A stretch of 19,819 nucleotides of DNA from Escherichia coli (lineage in GTDB: Bacteria; Pseudomonadota; Gammaproteobacteria; Enterobacterales; Enterobacteriaceae): assembly GCF_003334315.1 (NCBI RefSeq), contig NZ_QOWR01000071.1, one strand, 5' to 3'. The notes under the pieces were generated by a model. The model worked only from the letters and a program-made list of their open reading frames with translations, was not told the DNA's origin and did no database searches. Positions within the stretch are counted from its first letter, which is position 1; the number at the start of each line of letters is the position of its first letter. The position numbers and the translations under genes are program-made. Positions 3,117 to 19,819 of the stretch are shown one piece after another.

Positions 3117-3308
3117 AGTTTAACCCAATAAAAATAAAGTAATTATACATTTGTTTAATACCACTCTCTTCTTACGTGCGCAAGCGACTTATAAAGTAAT
3201 AAAGTTTTTGCCAGCCTATTACTGATAAGAGTATTGTAACGTGGCAGAACATTTTACTGTCTGTATCTATAAATTATATCAATGGATTTTTTAATTCAGG
3301 GAATTTTT

Positions 3309-4505
3309 ATGGCTCAAGTTATTAATGAAATGGATGTTCCGTCCCATTCGTTTGTTTTTCATGGCACAGGTGAGAGATATTTTCTTATTTGTGTGGTGAA
3401 TGTGTTGTTAACGATTATAACGCTAGGTATCTATTTACCATGGGCATTAATGAAATGTAAGCGTTATCTCTATGCTAATATGGAAGTTAACGGACAACGA
3501 TTTTCTTATGGAATTACCGGTGGGAATGTTTTTGTTAGTTGTCTTGTTTTTGTTTTTTTCTATTTCGCAATCTTAATGACAGTGTCAGCAGATATGCCGC
3601 TTGTTGGCTGTGTTTTGACTTTGTCACTGTTGGTTTTGCTTATATTTATGGCAGCAAAAGGACTGCGTTATCAGGCCTTGATGACCAGTCTCAACGGCGT
3701 AAGATTTAGTTTTAATTGCTCTTTGAAAGGGTTCTGGTGGGTAACCTTTTTCTTGCCGATTTTAATGGCCATTGGGATGGGGACTGTTTTCTTTATCTCG
3801 ACAAAGATGCTACATGCCAATAGTTCAAGTAGTGTTATTATATCTGTGGTTCTGATGGCAATAGTTGGTATTGTTTCCATTGGTATTTTTAATGGTACTT
3901 TATATAGTCTGGTAATGAGTTTTCTCTGGAGCAATACCAGTTTCGGTATACATCGTTTCAAGGTGAAATTAGATACTACGTATTGTATAAAATATGCCAT
4001 TCTCGCATTTTTAGCTTTATTACCTTTTCTCGCTGTTGCTGGTTATATTATCTTCGATCAAATATTAAATGCGTATGATAGTTTTGTGTATGCAAATGAT
4101 GATATTGAGAATTTACAGCAATTTATGGAAATGCAACGTAAAATGATAATCGCGCAGTTAATCTATTATTTTGGGATTGCTGTTAGCACCAGTTATTTAA
4201 CGGTGTCGTTGCGAAATCATTTTATGAGCAACCTGTCACTGAATGATGGGCGTATTCGTTTTCGCTCAACTTTAACTTACCACGGTATGCTTTATCGCAT
4301 GTGTGCGTTGGTAGTGATATCCGGGATTACGGGCGGTCTGGCTTATCCACTGCTGAAAATATGGATGATTGACTGGCAGGCAAAAAATACGTATTTGCTG
4401 GGCGATTTGGATGACCTTCCTTTAATCAATAAAGAAGAACAACCAGATAAAGGCTTCTTAGCCAGTATTTCACGGGGAATTATGCCTTCTTTACCATTTC
4501 TGTAA
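3309..4505 (+). CDS. yjgN: Inner membrane protein, DUF898 family
   Basis: Multi-pass hydrophobic ORF. Start placed at ATG 3309 (MAQVINEMDVPSHSFVFHGTGERYF) rather than the track start 3282, giving 398 aa as recalled for YjgN. Confidence 0.85.
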   Translation: MAQVINEMDVPSHSFVFHGTGERYFLICVVNVLLTIITLGIYLPWALMKCKRYLYANMEVNGQRFSYGITGGNVFVSCLVFVFFYFAILMTVSADMPLVGCVLTLSLLVLLIFMAAKGLRYQALMTSLNGVRFSFNCSLKGFWWVTFFLPILMAIGMGTVFFISTKMLHANSSSSVIISVVLMAIVGIVSIGIFNGTLYSLVMSFLWSNTSFGIHRFKVKLDTTYCIKYAILAFLALLPFLAVAGYIIFDQILNAYDSFVYANDDIENLQQFMEMQRKMIIAQLIYYFGIAVSTSYLTVSLRNHFMSNLSLNDGRIRFRSTLTYHGMLYRMCALVVISGITGGLAYPLLKIWMIDWQAKNTYLLGDLDDLPLINKEEQPDKGFLASISRGIMPSLPFL

Positions 4506-11089: not shown

Positions 11090-12171
11090 TGCAACCTTTT
11101 GGCGTACTTGACCGCTATATCGGTAAAACTATTTTCACCACCATCATGATGACGCTGTTCATGCTGGTGTCGCTGTCGGGCATTATCAAGTTTGTCGATC
11201 AGTTGAAAAAAGCCGGGCAGGGGAGTTACGACGCGTTAGGCGCAGGAATGTATACCTTGCTGAGCGTGCCGAAAGATGTGCAGATCTTCTTCCCGATGGC
11301 GGCTCTGCTTGGGGCGTTGCTTGGTCTTGGGATGCTGGCGCAGCGCAGCGAACTGGTGGTGATGCAGGCTTCTGGTTTTACCCGTATGCAGGTGGCGCTG
11401 TCGGTGATGAAAACCGCCATTCCGCTGGTCTTGCTGACGATGGCGATTGGCGAATGGGTTGCGCCGCAGGGCGAACAGATGGCGCGTAACTACCGTGCGC
11501 AGGCGATGTACGGCGGCTCGTTGCTCTCTACCCAGCAAGGCTTATGGGCGAAAGATGGCAACAACTTCGTCTACATTGAGCGGGTTAAAGGTGACGAAGA
11601 GTTAGGTGGCATCAGCATTTATGCCTTTAACGAGAATCGTCGTCTGCAATCCGTACGCTATGCCGCTACTGCGAAGTTTGACCCGGAACATAAAGTCTGG
11701 CGTCTGTCGCAGGTTGATGAATCTGATCTGACCAATCCGAAACAGATTACCGGTTCGCAGACGGTGAGCGGCACCTGGAAAACCAACCTCACGCCAGACA
11801 AACTGGGCGTGGTGGCGCTGGACCCGGATGCACTCTCCATTAGCGGTTTGCACAACTATGTGAAGTATCTGAAGTCGAGCGGTCAGGATGCCGGACGTTA
11901 TCAGCTCAACATGTGGAGCAAAATCTTCCAGCCGCTATCCGTGGCGGTGATGATGCTGATGGCGCTGTCGTTCATCTTTGGCCCACTGCGTAGCGTACCG
12001 ATGGGCGTGCGTGTGGTCACCGGTATCAGCTTCGGTTTTGTCTTCTACGTACTGGACCAGATCTTCGGCCCGCTGACGTTGGTTTATGGCATCCCGCCGA
12101 TCATCGGCGCACTGTTGCCAAGCGCCAGCTTCTTCTTAATCAGCCTGTGGCTGTTAATGAGAAAATCGTAA
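11089..12171 (+). CDS. lptG: LPS export ABC transporter permease LptG
   Basis: ATG at 11089 overlaps the lptF stop (GTGATG); product begins MQPFGVLDRYIGKTIFTTIMMTLFMLVSLSG, 360 aa. Confidence 0.93.
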   Translation: MQPFGVLDRYIGKTIFTTIMMTLFMLVSLSGIIKFVDQLKKAGQGSYDALGAGMYTLLSVPKDVQIFFPMAALLGALLGLGMLAQRSELVVMQASGFTRMQVALSVMKTAIPLVLLTMAIGEWVAPQGEQMARNYRAQAMYGGSLLSTQQGLWAKDGNNFVYIERVKGDEELGGISIYAFNENRRLQSVRYAATAKFDPEHKVWRLSQVDESDLTNPKQITGSQTVSGTWKTNLTPDKLGVVALDPDALSISGLHNYVKYLKSSGQDAGRYQLNMWSKIFQPLSVAVMMLMALSFIFGPLRSVPMGVRVVTGISFGFVFYVLDQIFGPLTLVYGIPPIIGALLPSASFFLISLWLLMRKS

Positions 12172-12289
12172 CCAAGCAAGGGAGCGAAAGCTCCCTTTCA
12201 CATTGTTGATAAAGTCAAATACGAGTTCGATCGGTCCCCTCGCCCCTTTGGGGAGAGGGTTAGGGTGAGGGGCACAGACCGCACCTGAC

Positions 12290-13792
12290 TTACCTTCTTC
12301 TCCCCCCCAGCAAACTCCCCAACATCCCGCGTACAATCTGATTCGTCACCTGGCGAGCGGCGCTTTTGGCCATTGTTTGCACCACACCATCTTTCTTCCC
12401 GCCGCGTGGTCCGGTAGTGCCAAACAAAATATCCTTCAATCCACCAAGAATACCGTCATCCACCGCCACCTCTTTCCCTTTCGCGGCAGGATTATTTTGC
12501 TGCTCGGTACTGGCCTGAAAGCCTTTTTGCAACATCTCATAGGCGGATTCTCGGTCCACCTCATCCTCATATTTGCCATACACCGGGGAGTGATTAATCA
12601 GGCCATTACGCTCATCTTCCGTCACCGGCCCCATTCGCGAACAAGGCGCGATCACCATCGCCCGCTCCACCACTGAAGGACTTCCTTTCACATCAAGAAA
12701 CGAGATTAACGCCTCGCCGGTGCCCAGTTCCTGAATCGCCTTTTCGGTATCAAACGCCGGATTGGCCCGCATGGTTTGCGCCGCAGCTTTTACCGCTTTC
12801 TGATCTTTGGGCGTAAAAGCACGCAAAGCGTGTTGAACGCGATTACCGAGCTGCCCGAGCACGTTATCCGGAATATCAGACGGGTTTTGCGAAACGAACC
12901 AGACGCCCACGCCTTTTGAGCGAATAAGCCTTATCACCTGCTCAATCTTATCCAGCAGTACCTGCGGTGCGTCATTAAACAGCAGATGTGCTTCGTCGAA
13001 GAAAAACACCAGTTTCGGCTTCTCCAGATCGCCTGCTTCCGGCAATTGTTCATACAACTCCGAGAGCATCCACAACAGGCTGGCGGCATATAGTTTCGGC
13101 ATCTGATAAAGCTTTTCGGCGCTGAGGATATTGATAACGCCTTTACCGTTGGCATCGGTGCGCATCCAGTCTTTGATATCCAGCATCGGCTCGCCAAAGA
13201 AATGCTCCGCACCTTGTTGCTCCAGCGACAGTAATCCGCGCTGGATGGCACCAACCGATGCGCTACTGATATTTCCGTACTGATTCTGGAAAGATTTGGC
13301 GTTATCGCCGATGTACTGGGTAATCGCCCGCAAATCTTTAAAGTCGAGCAGTAACAGCCCCTGATCGTCAGCAATGCGGAAGATGATATTCAGCACGCCA
13401 GACTGCACATCGTTGAGATTCAACAGCCGCGCCAGCAACAGCGGCCCCAGGTCTGAAACCGTCGCCCGCACCGGATGGCCTTTCTCGCCAAAGATATCCC
13501 ACACCACCACCGGATTGGCATGCGGTTGCCAGTCATTGACGCCGATATTTTTAAGCCTTGTGAGCAGTTTTTCCGACGCCGTTCCTGCCTGCGCGATACC
13601 GGTCAGATCGCCTTTCACATCAGCCATAAACACCGGCACGCCGATTTCCGACAATGACTCTGCCAGTTTTTGCAGCGTAACGGTTTTACCCGTCCCCGTT
13701 GCGCCAGTAATCAGCCCGTGACGGTTAGCCATTCCCGGCAGTAAAAACAGTTCTGTGTCCGGCGTGCGGGCAATTAACAGGGGTTCGCTCAT
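12290..13792 (-). CDS. yjgR: DUF853-family P-loop NTPase
   Basis: Walker A GATGTGKT near the N-terminus. Start placed at ATG 13792 ([16 protein letters not shown]), giving 500 aa, rather than the longer track ORF from 13840. Confidence 0.85.
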
Positions 13793-13891
13793 GAGATTTC
13801 CTCCAGTTTCCTGCCTGGAGTATAGGCAACGGCTGTGCACTCTTCACCGCTAAATTCAGCAGATTGCGAGACGCCTTCCAAAGAGATTTAA

Positions 13892-13915
13892 GTGCCGGGC
13901 GACAGGCACCCGGCA
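13892..13915 (-). terminator. Putative hairpin terminator downstream of ahr
   Basis: GC-rich inverted repeat tgccggg / cccggca (13893-13899 / 13909-13915), 7 bp 3' of the ahr stop; the minus-strand flank after it is moderately T-rich. Confidence 0.45.
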
Positions 13916-13921
13916 AAGGGA

Positions 13922-14941
13922 TCAGAAGTCGGCTTTCAGGACCACGCGGTAGCGCGCTTTACCATCGCGTACATGCTGGATGGCGTCGTTAATTTTCGAC
14001 ATCGGGAACAGTTCGGTGGTCGGCGCAACCTTGCTGCGGGCGGCAAAACGCATCAGCTTACGCAGCTCATAAGGCGTGCCGGTAGCAGAACCAGAGACGC
14101 TGCGATCGCCCGCAATTAACGTAAAGGCCGGAACAGACAGCGGCGTGAGAACCGCACCGACCGTATGGAAATTACCGCCATAGGTCAGCGCCTCAAAATA
14201 AGGCTGCCAGTCGAGGCTGACGTTGACGGTGTTGATAATGAGATCAAACTGCCCCGCCAGTGCTTTCAGTGCCTGCGGATCGCGGCTATTCACCACTTTA
14301 TCGGCACCCATCGCCAGTACTTCCTGCTCTTTCGCCGGATTAGAACTAAAGGCCGTCACCTCGCATCCCATTGCGTGCAGAAGTTTTATAGCGATATGCC
14401 CCAGCCCGCCAATACCAATTACCCCAACGCGGCTGGTAGCAGTGATATGGTGCATCAACAGTGGTTTAAAGACCGTGATACCACCACACAACAGCGGCCC
14501 GGCGGACTCGATATCAATATTTTCTGGCAGTGGAATCACCCATTGCCAGTCCGCACGCAACTTCTCGGCAAAACCACCACGATTCATAATTGTTGGCACC
14601 GCACCTTGCTCGCAGTTGATCTGATTACCGCTAATACAGGCGTCGCAGTGACCACAGCTACGCGCCGTCCAGCCAATCCCGACACGCTGACCGACCTGCA
14701 AACCTTTATCCTGCGCGGCGCTCCCGAGTGCCACCACGCGCCCAATCACCTCATGCCCGGCAACCAGCGGATATTGTGAAAATCCCCATTCGTTATCGAT
14801 CATCGACAGATCGGAATGGCAGATCCCGCAGTAATCCACCTGCACTTCAACATCTTGTGGCTTCAGCTCACCGGGATCGTACTCATAAACTTCCAGTTCG
14901 CCGCCCGCTTCTTTTGCGGCATAGCTTTTTATCATCGACAT
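13922..14941 (-). CDS. ahr: NADPH-dependent aldehyde reductase, zinc-type alcohol dehydrogenase family
   Basis: Start at ATG 14941 ([26 protein letters not shown]), 339 aa; contains the Zn-ADH motif [12 protein letters not shown] and the Rossmann motif [10 protein letters not shown]. Lies directly upstream of leuX as yjgB/ahr does in K-12. Confidence 0.9.
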
Positions 14942-15136
14942 TTTTGGGTCCTTCTCTGGTGTTGTTTGGGAAGTGTAGAGCATGGCAGGGCGGGGTGCCT
15001 GGAGTGTGACAAAGGTTACACATCGCGGTATGCAATGCTGAAAATTTCAGCACTTAGCGAGGTGCGAGCAAGCTGGCGCTTGCATGGTGGCGTGCGACAG
15101 GTATAATCCACAACGTTTTCCGCATACCTCTTCAGT

Positions 15137-15221
15137 GCCGAAGTGGCGAAATCGGTAGACGCAGTTGATTCAAAATCAACCGTAGAAATACGTGCCGGTT
15201 CGAGTCCGGCCTTCGGCACCA
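15137..15221 (+). tRNA. leuX: tRNA-Leu (anticodon CAA)
   Basis: GCCGAAGTGGCGAAATCGGTAGACGCAGTTGATTCAAAATCAACCGTAGAAATACGTGCCGGTTCGAGTCCGGCCTTCGGCACCA: cloverleaf with long variable arm, anticodon loop TTCAAAA giving CAA, and 3' CCA. Confidence 0.95.
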
Positions 15222-15234
15222 AAAGTATGTAAAT

Positions 15235-15258
15235 AGACCTCAACTGAGGTCTTTTTTT
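15235..15258 (+). terminator. Intrinsic terminator of leuX
   Basis: Stem agacctc / gaggtct (15235-15241 / 15246-15252) with a 4-nt loop, followed by T7. Confidence 0.85.
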
Positions 15259-15407
15259 ATGCCTGAAATCCAGTATTTACCTACCTTTCCCGCTATATTA
15301 ACTCTCTCAAGGTCAACCGACATCAACGTACATCTACCAACACATGTTGGTACAGATGATGGTATTTCCGGTTCGATAATGCTTGTACCAACAGGGAGGG
15401 GATAAGC

Positions 15408-16673
15408 ATGGCGTTAACAGATATCAAGGTCAGAACAGCCAAGCCAATGGATAAGCAGTACAAACTGACCGATGGCAGCGGTATGCACCTGCTTGTCCAT
15501 CCTAATGGTTCTAAGTACTGGCGTTTGCAGTACCGTTATGATGGCAAGCAAAAGATGTTGGCACTTGGGATTTACCCTGAAATAACACTGGCGGATGCCA
15601 GAGCACGTCGTGACGACGCGCGTAAGCTGCTAGCGAATGGCGTCGATCCGGGAGACAAAAAGAAAAATGATAAGGTTGAACAGAGTAAAGCACGAACCTT
15701 TAAAGAGGTCGCGATCGAGTGGCATGGCACCAATAAAAAGTGGTCTGAAGATCACGCCCATCGTGTGCTAAAAAGCTTGGAAGATAATCTCTTCGCGGCA
15801 CTTGGTGAGCGTAATATCGCTGAGCTAAAAACTCGTGATTTATTAGTACCCATTAAAGCCGTAGAGACATCTGGACGTCTTGAAGTGGCTTCCCGCCTTC
15901 AACAGCGCACCACGGCCATCATGCGTTATGCAGTGCAAAGCGGGTTAATTGATTACAATCCGGCGCAAGAGATGGCGGGGGCGGTTGCTTCCAGTAATCG
16001 ACAGCATCGTCCGGCGCTGGAGTTAAGGCGTATCCCTGAGTTGCTTGAGAAAATAGACAGCTATACCGGCAGGCCGTTAACCCGCTGGGCGACAGAACTC
16101 ACTCTGCTTATCTTTATTCGGTCCAGTGAGCTGCGTTTTGCTCGCTGGTCAGAAATCGATTTTGAAACGTCAATGTGGACTATCCCGCCCGAGCGAGAGC
16201 CTATTCCTGATGTGAAACATTCTCAGCGAGGATCAAAGATGCATACACCGCATCTGGTGCCGCTTTCAAAGCAGGCGCTGGCGATCCTGAAGCAGATAAA
16301 ACAGTTCTGTGGCGAACATGAGCTGATTTTTATTGGCGATCACGATCCGCGTAAGCCCATGAGCGAGAACACGGTAAACAGTGCGCTACGGGTGATGGGT
16401 TATGACACTAAGGTTGAAGTTTGCGGCCACGGCTTCCGTACAATGGCCTGTAGTTCGTTAATTGAGTCAGGACTATGGTCGAAGGATGCGGTGGAAAGGC
16501 AGATGAGCCATATGGAACGCAATTCGGTGAGGGCGGCGTATATCCATAAAGCGGAACATCTGGATGAGCGCAAGCTGATGTTGCGGTGGTGGGCGGATTT
16601 TCTGGATGCGAACCGGGAGAAAGGGATTACGCCGTTTGACTACGCGAAGATCAATCGGGGTAATGGCGAGTGA
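15408..16673 (+). CDS. P4-type tyrosine integrase (site-specific recombinase) at the leuX tRNA
   Basis: 421-aa ORF with strong SD (agggagggg) before the ATG; catalytic-domain signatures HGFR and RAAYIH (His-X-X-Arg ... Tyr); begins about 190 bp after the tRNA 3' end, the typical layout for P4-like integrative islands. Confidence 0.9.
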   Translation: MALTDIKVRTAKPMDKQYKLTDGSGMHLLVHPNGSKYWRLQYRYDGKQKMLALGIYPEITLADARARRDDARKLLANGVDPGDKKKNDKVEQSKARTFKEVAIEWHGTNKKWSEDHAHRVLKSLEDNLFAALGERNIAELKTRDLLVPIKAVETSGRLEVASRLQQRTTAIMRYAVQSGLIDYNPAQEMAGAVASSNRQHRPALELRRIPELLEKIDSYTGRPLTRWATELTLLIFIRSSELRFARWSEIDFETSMWTIPPEREPIPDVKHSQRGSKMHTPHLVPLSKQALAILKQIKQFCGEHELIFIGDHDPRKPMSENTVNSALRVMGYDTKVEVCGHGFRTMACSSLIESGLWSKDAVERQMSHMERNSVRAAYIHKAEHLDERKLMLRWWADFLDANREKGITPFDYAKINRGNGE

Positions 16674-16714
16674 GTTGAATGCCGTTATTCCTCGGCTGAT
16701 GTTTAAATTTAAAA

Positions 16715-16757
16715 GACCAACCAGCCCGCTTAGGACTGGTTGGTCGCTGTATTTTTT
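16715..16757 (+). terminator. Intrinsic terminator after the integrase gene
   Basis: Perfect 10-bp stem gaccaaccag / ctggttggtc (16715-16724 / 16736-16745) followed by a T-run at 16751-16757. Confidence 0.8.
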
Positions 16758-16877
16758 CAGAATTCCATCTGCCAGGTACAGAGCCGTCAGGCAAAATGGA
16801 TGTCTGCAATAATGCCTTGAATGTACATATAGTTGCGAGCATCATCGCAAATATGTGCTCATGGATTCTCCAACGCA

Positions 16878-17756
16878 ATGACCTCTGACAAAACCCTAAA
16901 ACAAGCGATATCAAATATCACCATCTGGCGCAAAGGCGAACAACGTGCGCCACATAAGCCATTATTGCTGCTGTACGTTCTCTCACACTATCGGCAGGGT
17001 CATGGTCGCATGTTTAACTATGGTTCTGAAATCTACGAGCCCCTGTTGGATCTCCTGGAACGTTATGGACCGCAGCGCCGTGACCAGCGCCCGGACATGC
17101 CGTTCTGGCGTCTGAAGGGCGATGGCTTCTGGGAACTACATAACGCGGAACTGTGCTCAACCAGTGGTAGCCGCCAGCCGCCCCGACGTGAACTCATTGA
17201 ATATAATGTCGCTGGTGGATTTGATGCCGATAATTTTGCGTTGGTGGCAAAAAATCACAGGTTAATTGATACGCTGGCTCAGCAGCTCCTGGAGGCGCAT
17301 TTCCCGGCCAGTATTCAGGAAGAGATCGCTGACGAGATGGGTTTTGATATTCGCACCTCTCTCCGTCAACGCGATCCGAAGTTTCGCCAGATGGTGCTAC
17401 GTGCTTACAATTATCAGTGCGCTATCTGCGGCTTTAACATGCGCCACGACAATGCGCCGATTGCTCTGGAAGCCGCTCATATCAGATGGAAGCAGCACCA
17501 TGGCCCTTGCGAAGTACCTAATGGCCTGGCATTGTGTGCAATCCACCATAAAGCGTTTGATCGCGGTTCGATTGGCCTGGATGAAAATATGCGTGTGGTG
17601 GTTTCCGGTGCGGTAAATGGTGGTGGAGTGGTACAGCGACTGTTCTGGGATTTTGCGGGAAAGGCGATTGCGTTGCCACCGGTTAAAGAAAATTATCCGG
17701 GCGAGCAGTTTGTTGAATGGCACAGAAAAGAGGTGTTCAGAGGAGAGGGAATCTGA
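16878..17756 (+). CDS. Two-domain protein: N-terminal uncharacterised (possible DNA-modification reader) domain fused to a C-terminal HNH nuclease; candidate type IV-like restriction or defence nuclease
   Basis: HNH motif readable directly in the C-terminus: YQCAICGF ... LEAAHIRW ... NGLALCAIHHKAFD. The N-terminal roughly 170 aa has no HNH features but distinctive motifs (PHKPLLLLYVL, MPFWRLKGDGFWEL). Start chosen at the first ATG (16878); the track ORF begins at a TTG at 16833. First cargo gene after the integrase. Confidence 0.6.
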   Translation: MTSDKTLKQAISNITIWRKGEQRAPHKPLLLLYVLSHYRQGHGRMFNYGSEIYEPLLDLLERYGPQRRDQRPDMPFWRLKGDGFWELHNAELCSTSGSRQPPRRELIEYNVAGGFDADNFALVAKNHRLIDTLAQQLLEAHFPASIQEEIADEMGFDIRTSLRQRDPKFRQMVLRAYNYQCAICGFNMRHDNAPIALEAAHIRWKQHHGPCEVPNGLALCAIHHKAFDRGSIGLDENMRVVVSGAVNGGGVVQRLFWDFAGKAIALPPVKENYPGEQFVEWHRKEVFRGEGI

Positions 17757-17825
17757 AATAGATTGATTTTTTTCTTTAGATTATTAAGTTAGTTATTGAT
17801 AACGGCTTTATTATGTGGAGGGTAT

Positions 17826-18146
17826 ATGGTTAGGCGTAATGTGAAATGGTTGTCTTTCTTTATTTTTATTTCTATTCTGTCTTTATTTCGCGGGTGGTCG
17901 TTTATTAAACAGTTTCATCTGTCGGCATTTACTGTACTTGCTGTATTTATTTATGCGTTGTATAGCTATATAAGAATTTCAACTTTTGTAAATAAGATGG
18001 AGTTAAATAATAAATTTATTGTTTTTCTTAGGTTGAAGAAATTTGTTTTGTTTTTTAAGCAAGGGACTAAGCTCACTATTCTGGAAAGAAATATTGTCTT
18101 TTTTTCAGTTTATATACCTTGTCTGCTTATCATGTGCTTATATTAG
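17826..18146 (+). CDS. Hypothetical small hydrophobic protein (about 106 aa, 2 predicted TM segments); may be a composition artefact
   Basis: ATG at 17826 preceded by GGAGG (17817-17821); hydrophobic stretches LSFFIFISILSLF and AFTVLAVFIYALYSYI. The region is very AT-rich, which favours F/I/L codons, so coding status is uncertain. Confidence 0.3.
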   Translation: MVRRNVKWLSFFIFISILSLFRGWSFIKQFHLSAFTVLAVFIYALYSYIRISTFVNKMELNNKFIVFLRLKKFVLFFKQGTKLTILERNIVFFSVYIPCLLIMCLY

Positions 18147-18447
18147 GTAAAATGCATGTCATTAATAAATGGTTAAATGTGGGTTTGTATAACTAATTCA
18201 TAGGTGTCATTCCAGTTTTATTAGTTAAATTTGTCGTTCTGCTGCTTCAATGTGCCGAAAATAATTTTTTGTTCTTAAATAAGTATTGGCTGATAAATTG
18301 TCTCTCCTTTAATAAAATTTGAAGTTGTTCACGGTTTATAGGGTTCTTCAATTATTAATGTTTTTTCTTTGTTAGCATCTTTCCTCAATGCTATGTATCT
18401 TTATAAAGATACGACCTAATCTTATTTGTCATTTTTAAAATCCTGTA

Positions 18448-18944
18448 TTATATTGTGAAGTATAATAAGCTAAGGAACGAGCCGAAAATAAAAACATGTC
18501 TAAATATTGCTAATCCAACCAGTTCATCAAGGCGACAGCCTTTCCATGATGCATTCCTCCAGCCTAGCTGAAACAATGTTGACCATGATAGAATAAATAT
18601 TCCGGTGGCGCTAACGGCGTCTTTCCATTCTAATGGATAGATAATCCGAAATTTCCCTGAGTAAAATCCAATCGCAATTACTATAAAAAGCACACCCAAC
18701 ATTATTAGCACTGACGCAAGAATGGACTTTCTTAAGTCATCACAATACTCTTCGAGGGAGTGTTTGTGATCATCTGGATTTAGACTGTATTTCCCCGCCT
18801 CAAGTTTTCTCTTATATTCATCCTTCTCAAGTTCAAAAGCCATCTTATTGATAGCACCAAGCGTAATAAATTTTTCCTTGTTGAAGAAAAAATAAAACAT
18901 TGCTTTATAAATATTTTCTTTTTTAGGTAGTTGTGCTGTGTTCA
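18448..18944 (-). CDS. Hypothetical membrane protein (about 165 aa; soluble charged N-terminal part plus 3 predicted TM helices)
   Basis: ORF on the minus strand with ATG at 18944 (MNTAQLPKKENIYKAMFYFFF); the track's longer version starts at a TTG at 18981. Predicted TM segments ILASVLIMLGVLFIVIAIGFY, GIFILSWSTLFQLGW and LVGLAIFRHVFIFGSFLSLLYF. No recognisable family from sequence alone. Confidence 0.4.
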
Positions 18945-18970
18945 TATTCTCATAAAAAATAAGTAACGAT

Positions 18971-18993
18971 GTTGACAGCAAGAAGCTGTCAAC
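18971..18993 (-). other. Perfect 9-bp stem hairpin between the hsdR-like remnant and the membrane-protein gene (possible terminator or leader structure)
   Basis: gttgacagc (18971-18979) / gctgtcaac (18985-18993) with a 5-nt loop, 8 nt 3' of the hsdR-like stop; the T-run lies 9 nt further on, so this is not a textbook intrinsic terminator. Confidence 0.4.
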
Positions 18994-19000
18994 ATGAAAT

Positions 19001-19366
19001 TCACATCGTCCAATGATTCGAAATAACTTCCGCTTGTTTCAAAATTAACTCCACCGCACCCGGCGTTTTATCTGGCGGATACTTATACCGACGCAGAGTC
19101 TGGCGAACCAAGATACGCAGCCTTGCACGAACGCTCTCGCGCACCTGCCAGTCAACGGTAGTTGATTGCCTCAACTTCAAGGTGACTTCTATCGCCAGTT
19201 TCTTAAGCACCTCATCCCCTAACTCTCGGACGGCACTTTCGTTTTCTGCCAGTGCGTCGTAGAAAGCGATTTCGTCAGGATTCAGGCCAAGCGCATCATC
19301 ACGCTCCATTGCAGACTGAAAATCCTTCGCCATCTGGATCAGCTCTTCAATCACCTGCGCCGTCTC
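19001..19366 (-). pseudogene. 3' remnant (about 122 codons) of a type I restriction enzyme R-subunit-like gene, truncated by IS1 insertion
   Basis: ORF ...LNPDEIAFYDALAENESAVRELGDEVLKKLAIEVTLKLRQSTTVDWQVRESVRARLRILVRQTLRRYKYPPDK... resembles the conserved HsdR C-terminal domain (DUF3387-like) as I recall it. The frame stays open upstream right to the IS1 boundary at 19366/19367, as expected for an insertion into a longer gene. Confidence 0.5.
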
Positions 19367-19819
19367 GGTAATGGTCCCAACTTATTGATAGTGTTTTATG
19401 TTCAGATAATGCCCGATTACTTTGTCATGCAGCTCCACCGATTTTGAGAACGACAGCGACTTCCGTCCCAGCCGTGCCAGGTGCTGCCTCAGATTCAGGT
19501 TATGCCGCTCAATTCGCTGCGTATATCGCTTGCTGATTACGTGCAGCTTTCCCTTCAGGCGGGATTCATACAGCGGCCAGCCATCCGTCATCCATATCAC
19601 CACGTCAAAGGGTGACAGCAGGCTCATAAGACGCCCCAGCGTCGCCATCGTGCGTTCACCGAATACGTGCGCAACAACCGTCTTCCGGAGCCTGTCATAC
19701 GCGTAAAACAGCCAGCGCTGGCGCGATTTAGCCCCGACATAGCCCCACTGTTCGTCCATTTCCGCGCAGACGATGACGTCACTGCCCGGCTGTATGCGCG
19801 AGGTTACCGACTGCGGCCT
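19367..19819 (-). mobile_element. IS1 insertion sequence, partial (right inverted repeat and insB); same orientation as the copy at 1-204; continues beyond window end
   Basis: 19367 onward reads ggtaatggtcccaacttattgatagtgttttatgttcagataatg, the reverse complement of the IS1 right end from memory (variant at 2-3 positions); the remainder to the window edge matches insB. Confidence 0.85.
19382..19819 (-). CDS. insB: IS1 InsB (transposase C-terminal part; partial CDS truncated by window end)
   Basis: Translation ...[125 protein letters not shown] matches IS1 InsB; the frame continues open to the window edge. Confidence 0.9.

Follow-up and report, generated by a model that had tools for sequence, protein, structure and literature searches.

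The yjgR–ahr slot of Escherichia coli: a common idn-less allele in place of the L-idonate (GntII) gene cluster of K-12

The gene idnK together with idnDOTR makes up the subsidiary GntII system, or L-idonate pathway, of Escherichia coli (Bausch et al. 1998, as cited in PMC3251573), which is also summarised in PMC6054384. In PMC8545132 idnODRKT is treated as accessory, with a presence in 83% of pks+ as compared to 31% of pks- E. coli and absence from ST95 clade IV, and PMC4216125 gives the genes for L-idonate degradation as enriched in some STEC groups. The lineage-associated presence/absence polymorphism is the same as the one investigated here. The passages concerned report gene counts, whereas the anatomy of the junctions and the cross-genus age of the alleles come from the present analysis. 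Variable presence of idn is already known; the anatomy of the replacement, the proposed single origins and cross-genus age of the alleles and a short tract in common with E. fergusonii are what we add, which amounts to a modest refinement.

In K-12 MG1655 the genes are ordered yjgR-idnR-idnT-idnO-idnD-idnK-ahr-leuX, and yjgR and ahr are not directly adjacent. The original prediction was thus right about the K-12 gene order when it proposed that the cluster is missing here relative to K-12. We analyzed a stretch of 19,819 nucleotides of E. coli DNA (hereafter the window), in which yjgR occupies positions 12290–13792 on the minus strand, encoding a 500-aa ATPase of the DUF853/HerA-like C-terminal domain type with its ATG at 13792 according to the open reading frame listing. 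The ahr gene (yjgB) follows at 13922–14941 on the same strand and encodes an NADPH-dependent aldehyde reductase of 339 aa, an assignment based on NCBIfam, tblastn and RefSeq annotation. The start codon of yjgR reads CAT on the plus strand at 13790–13792 and the stop codon of ahr reads TCA at 13922–13924, so that the gap between these co-directional genes is exactly 129 bp (13793–13921), as had been predicted. Five idn genes are located at this position in K-12; in the window the whole GntII/L-idonate cluster is absent from the slot. A tblastn search of the 19.8-kb window with the five K-12 Idn proteins gave no homologues beyond the distant paralogy of IdnD and Ahr. The two flanking products are 98.8% (YjgR) and 99.7% (Ahr) identical to those of K-12 by tblastn, and Ahr scores 554 bits against the Ahr equivalog model NF047908 of NCBIfam, well above the cutoff of 470. 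Over the 2.7 kb comprising yjgR and ahr no difference exists between the window and the finished genomes of E. coli H1 and AH65 (100% identity); in the identical sequence RefSeq calls both genes in H1 and yjgR in AH65.

On the other side of ahr the conserved block is limited by the leuX gene for tRNA-Leu(CAA) at 15137–15221 on the plus strand, which was recognized by ARAGORN and an Rfam tRNA match and agrees with the K-12 annotation. leuX is an integration site for genomic islands, and in the window it is followed by a small island (15230–19819) consisting of a P4-type tyrosine integrase gene (15408–16673) and hypothetical ORFs. At 16833–17756 the island encodes a phosphorothioated-DNA-binding restriction endonuclease of the SBD-HNH/ScoMcrA type (NCBIfam NF045808, 444 bits). 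A type I restriction R-subunit gene is represented by its last ~366 bp (19001–19366), cut off by an IS1 element starting near 19367. At least 80% of the island is found in 16 of 5,426 complete E. coli genomes, for example in the chicken isolate AH65 with an intact hsdR, and the same island adjoins the yjgR of an E. fergusonii-type contig (L089). Differences to strain H1 were also seen at some distance from the slot. Upstream of the ornithine carbamoyltransferase gene, NCBIfam gave no match for two overlapping plus-strand ORFs (208–603 and 563–907), and the H1 counterpart of 208–907 is annotated as a frameshifted DNA-binding-protein pseudogene; yjgN is intact in the window (3282–4505) and split by IS3 in H1.

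Alignment of the junction with the K-12 GntII locus showed that both share the slot and its flanks (lptFG-yjgR and ahr-leuX), the ahr coding sequence as far as the stop codon and a 39-bp stretch directly in front of yjgR. Going upstream from the yjgR start codon, homology breaks off after these 39 bp, at 13831, and is regained precisely with the stop codon of ahr. The first part of the spacer (13793–13831, minus strand), which contains the yjgR leader, is therefore common to alleles with and without idn, and the remaining 90 bp (13832–13921) are specific to the idn-less state, as is also seen in alignments across species. When the 129-bp spacer was compared by BLAST with 7-nt words to the 5.1-kb idn segment of K-12, no match was found for these 90 bp. 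Since they have no counterpart in K-12, the two states represent alternative alleles of 90 bp and 5.1 kb, respectively, and neither is an insertion or deletion derivative of the other. The window thus differs from the K-12 locus in lacking all five idn genes and in having instead 90 bp that include a hairpin of ahr's own. In K-12 the stop codons of idnK and ahr are 3 bp apart, and the equivalent hairpin is contained in the 3' end of idnK.

The original prediction had offered a clean deletion as one possible origin of the adjacency, which would mean a recent loss of idnK-idnDOTR from a K-12-like ancestor of the strain. Intact flanking genes and a junction free of any IS element or scar would fit such an event. 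Neither the window junction nor the ends of the K-12 idn segment showed an IS element, meaningful terminal, inverted or direct repeats or a target-site duplication, as had been anticipated for the window. With 90 of the 129 bp foreign to K-12, however, no deletion between two points of the K-12 sequence can yield the observed spacer, and we regard a recent deletion as very improbable. The K-12 segment does not resemble an integrase-mobilized island either, as it consists of five metabolic and regulatory genes only. No transposase gene is present in the slot according to the ORFs of the window and the K-12 annotation, and the integrase of the window is encoded beyond ahr, in the leuX island, which is a separate element.

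A search for microhomology showed the 8-mer CAAAGAGA in the idn-less spacer (13880–13887) and, in the other allele, immediately within the border of the idn segment that faces yjgR; each of the two allele families has kept its copy. The chance expectation of this microhomology is about 0.04, and a further copy on the ahr side in K-12 is not kept in Citrobacter. Possibly the 8-mer indicates where the insertion really took place, but as evidence it is too slight to support a model.

We also inspected the spacer for transcriptional signals. It contains one strong stem-loop at 13893–13915 on the minus strand, confirming the single hairpin that had been predicted. A 9-bp G+C-rich stem is followed by the tail CUUAAAUCUCUUU (13880–13892), and the complete terminator-like element (13880–13915, minus strand) was recognized by a terminator scan, with a match at 13911–13890 on the minus strand, and by folding: the 71-nt context of the hairpin yields -22.5 kcal/mol with a z-score of -2.5. 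The predicted element has the features of a Rho-independent terminator, namely a G+C-rich stem-loop and a U-rich tract just after the stop codon. The hairpin of the window begins 7 nt after the ahr stop. A strong hairpin 8–12 nt after this stop is present in all eight taxa and alleles compared, although the stem sequences differ, and in alleles carrying idn the post-ahr hairpin lies in or beside the 3' end of the convergent idnK. Given this constant position, termination of ahr transcription is the most likely role of the predicted hairpin.

On the yjgR side a Shine-Dalgarno sequence GGAGGA is located at 13799–13804 on the minus strand, six bases upstream of the start codon. A -10-like hexamer TATACT, assigned by eye, lies at 13819–13824 on the same strand, at the very edge of the region common to both alleles. 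A scan of the spacer for the sigma-70 consensus gave no full promoter, and an Rfam scan of 12100–15500 returned leuX and nothing in the spacer. Since the putative -35 position of yjgR falls into allele-specific sequence, the difference between the alleles probably also alters yjgR transcription.

We then determined the frequency of both states in 5,426 complete E. coli genomes. The direct adjacency of yjgR and ahr as in the window was found in 3,213 of them (59%), and a 101-bp junction probe at a minimum of 95% identity detected 3,212. The window has the breakpoints and the ~90-bp specific sequence of this idn-less allele, and the junctions of most E. coli differ from it by point differences only. 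The finding is therefore real but ordinary: the window carries a common allele of the locus. Its particular yjgR-ahr haplotype represents a minority, with at least 99% identity in 207 of the 5,426 genomes. Sequences of idn were detected in 2,055 genomes, in every case on the chromosome and never on a plasmid. At least 80% of the cluster was present in 2,038 genomes, and the full K-12 arrangement yjgR-idn-ahr was found in one piece in 2,039. In none of the complete genomes did idn occur outside the yjgR-ahr slot, from which we infer that the genome the window comes from is also devoid of the cluster elsewhere.

In a third state, seen in about 156 genomes, the last 150 bp of ahr are missing, which leaves an ahr pseudogene beside leuX. 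Inspection of two of them, LH09-a (L003, 10504–11030) and N50 (L094, 6966–7546), showed a partly preserved idn-less spacer next to an ahr gene that lacks its 3' part or most of its length. Together these states account for the whole collection, so that presence of idn and the idn-less spacer are mutually exclusive. Both are spread over diverse serotypes and sequence types: O157:H7, O26, O103, O111, O121, O145, ATCC 25922, NC101 and O127:H6 are idn-less, and K-12, laboratory strains of the B lineage, O104:H4 and ST1193 carry the cluster. On a contig of the Escherichia sp. TW14182 type (L092) we noticed that no ahr gene call adjoins yjgR. One genome, MLI104K2 (NZ_CP116925.1, L004/L005), appeared as a candidate for an intermediate allele with a yjgR-ahr spacer of 928 bp. 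Although RefSeq lists the assembly as complete, this spacer is dominated by long homopolymer runs of G, C and A with scattered idnR- and idnT-like fragments. An error of the consensus or of polishing is the almost certain cause, so that we did not regard the spacer as a real intermediate and left it out of the comparison.

The MLI104K2 assembly demonstrates that junk homopolymers can enter this slot in a public sequence. We therefore considered that a collapsed or mis-joined contig might have dropped the idn region from the window, an explanation for which we counted no actual support. It is contradicted by the complete identity of yjgR-ahr to the finished H1 and AH65 genomes. That the junction recurs in four other species as well as in 3,212 complete E. 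coli genomes speaks both against such an artefact and against a recent deletion in this strain. An assembly error is accordingly extremely improbable.

The four other species were identified in a sample of at least five close relatives and of contigs encoding YjgR homologues, comprising one to three genomes per species, with Salmonella outside the sample. E. albertii shows the adjacency with a 129-bp spacer of ~94% identity to that of the window. Contigs whose YjgR is named E. fergusonii by NCBI are idn-less as well and have a spacer of 129 bp. In Citrobacter koseri and C. werkmanii the spacers measure 135–136 bp and are clearly homologous over the allele-specific part. The idn-less junctions of E. 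coli and these four species coincide in their breakpoints, in the position of the hairpin and in a common core (ACTCTTCACCGCTAAATT...GAGATTGCG...TTCCAAAG). Citrobacter sp. FP75 and the C. amalonaticus group, on the other hand, possess the full idn cluster in K-12 order and with the K-12 junction sequence. Accordingly the idn-less spacers align as one family, and the junctions of the idn-carrying K-12, FP75 and C. amalonaticus as another. Between K-12 and FP75 the idn genes show 78–83% nucleotide identity, as compared to 82–85% for the flanking genes lptG, yjgR and ahr. As the identity of the idn genes is in the range of the flanks, the cluster has co-diverged with them, which argues against a recent transfer between Escherichia and Citrobacter. 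The same junctions and the same allele-specific sequences across both genera thus suggest that each allele arose only once and has an age comparable to that of the genera themselves.

A different content was found in two Enterobacter genomes. In E. cloacae DSM 26481 (L010, 8217–9863) and Enterobacter sp. Ag1 (L012, 8224–9930) the slot is occupied by a gene for a dihydroxyacetone kinase of ~550 aa, and the spacers of these two genomes show no significant similarity to either allele. The slot between ahr and yjgR is consequently variable across the Enterobacteriaceae, with at least three contents. Downstream of ahr in E. cloacae (L010) we noticed a G+C-rich palindrome resembling CCCCTCGCCCCTTTGGGGAGAGGGTTAGGGTGAGGGG, a G+C-rich palindromic repeat located in the lptG-yjgR intergenic region of the window and of H1. 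This region (12172–12289 in the window) has no BLAST match to K-12, where the corresponding spacer is longer and contains a REP-like element. The gene order on this side of yjgR also differs in E. fergusonii-type contigs (L088–L090, 9610–10650), in which the 3' side of yjgR is occupied by an ArsP_1-family permease gene and unrelated genes and not by lptG-lptF as in E. coli, which places a rearrangement breakpoint directly at yjgR.

Which of the two alleles is the older one in Escherichia was assessed from the same comparison. The original prediction had suggested an ancestral state without idn as the other possible origin of the adjacency. This is plausible for Escherichia, where the sampled E. 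albertii and E. fergusonii genomes lack the cluster, but it is unproven, since Citrobacter has an idn allele with the same junctions and of no lesser age. In its extended form the proposal holds that the idn-less spacer is ancestral in Escherichia and that recombination with another enterobacterium later brought the cluster (back) into E. coli, where it spread. The lower G+C content of idn (43–51%, flanks 54–56%) would agree with this, and so would the uniformity of the cluster within E. coli, where 1,973 of 2,055 carriers (96%) have at least 99% identity to K-12 while yjgR varies by 4–6%. Against these points stand, besides the old allele of Citrobacter, the report of idnT and idnO in Salmonella (PMC6054384) and the small number of genomes per outgroup species, which may themselves be polymorphic. 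The gene in the Enterobacter slot is homologous to neither allele and cannot polarise the change. The points in favor tip towards an ancestor of Escherichia without the cluster and a later entry of idn, a course to which we give slightly less than even odds.

The reverse course would start from an allele with idn in the common ancestry of Escherichia, Citrobacter and Salmonella, with the idn-less allele originating in one event that replaced the cluster, followed by its spread between species. It draws on the synteny, identical junctions and co-divergence with the flanks of the idn allele in two genera, and on the near identity of the idn-less core in E. coli and E. fergusonii, which indicates that this allele moves between species. 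Between Citrobacter and E. coli, however, the idn-less spacers have diverged to about the same degree as the flanks, which is not expected of a recent invention, and the origin of the 90 bp would be left unexplained. We therefore hold this course to be possible but rather doubtful.

The flanks of the junction were compared for traces of allele exchange. A stretch of ~430 bp of the window, made up of the spacer with 150 nt of coding sequence on either side (the 3' end of ahr and the 5' end of yjgR), is 97–100% identical to E. fergusonii-type sequences, and the ahr and yjgR ends within it are 95–97% identical to K-12. Just beyond this core the relation is reversed, with 97–99% identity to K-12 and 92% to E. 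fergusonii. Eight of the 18 differences between the ahr genes of the window and K-12 are located within the last 100 nt. In the complete genomes, identity to K-12 over the 3'-terminal 150 bp of ahr is 90–96.7% where idn is missing and 96.7–100% where it is present. This reversing identity is the pattern expected of a recombination tract travelling with the allele, and we infer that the allele has been exchanged even between species. In the Citrobacter pair FP75 (with idn) and C. werkmanii (without) the flanks show no higher divergence beside the junction than farther away, so the signature of a recombination tract is limited to Escherichia. As regards the neighboring genes, yjgR is unusually diverged within E. 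coli, the window being 95.5% identical to K-12 as compared to 99.2–99.5% for the adjacent lptF and lptG, and the yjgR of the window is a mosaic between E. fergusonii and K-12.

Taken together, we favor the reading that the window carries the idn-less allele of an old slot with two alleles, each of which arose once and which are switched by homologous recombination in the flanks, and that the GntII/L-idonate pathway is absent; we assign this reading a probability of roughly 85%. One allele would then consist of the 129-bp spacer with the predicted intrinsic terminator of ahr and the yjgR leader, and the other would carry the 5.1-kb segment with idnK and idnDOTR in place of 90 bp of that spacer. 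Lineages would change from one to the other through homologous exchange within the conserved genes on either side, and not by transposition or site-specific excision. Such exchange would explain why the junctions carry no scar and why the two states are scattered patchily over the lineages of E. coli. A more far-reaching proposal is that both alleles predate the split of Escherichia and Citrobacter and have been kept by niche-dependent selection on the use of idonate and 5-ketogluconate, through repeated exchange of the short core between species. We put this forward tentatively and think it rather unlikely to hold in full. If true, it would constitute a trans-species polymorphism, which is more than plain loss or gain in single lineages.

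With regard to metabolism, a cell with the idn-less allele would be without IdnT transport, IdnD, IdnO, IdnK and the regulator IdnR. Going by established knowledge of the pathway, such a strain should be unable to grow on L-idonate or 5-ketogluconate, and it should retain the use of gluconate via the unlinked GntI system. Non-homologous idonate-like clusters have been described on some plasmids (pChiOTDR, PMC3251573), and these would be missed by DNA similarity. In annotation and metabolic models the strain should be scored as being without the GntII/L-idonate pathway, like most E. coli. K-12 represents the minority state at this locus, and absence relative to K-12 is consequently a poor guide to what is unusual in the species. 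The two-allele structure would provide a tidy example of an accessory operon that is exchanged by recombination in its flanks without leaving the scars of mobile elements.
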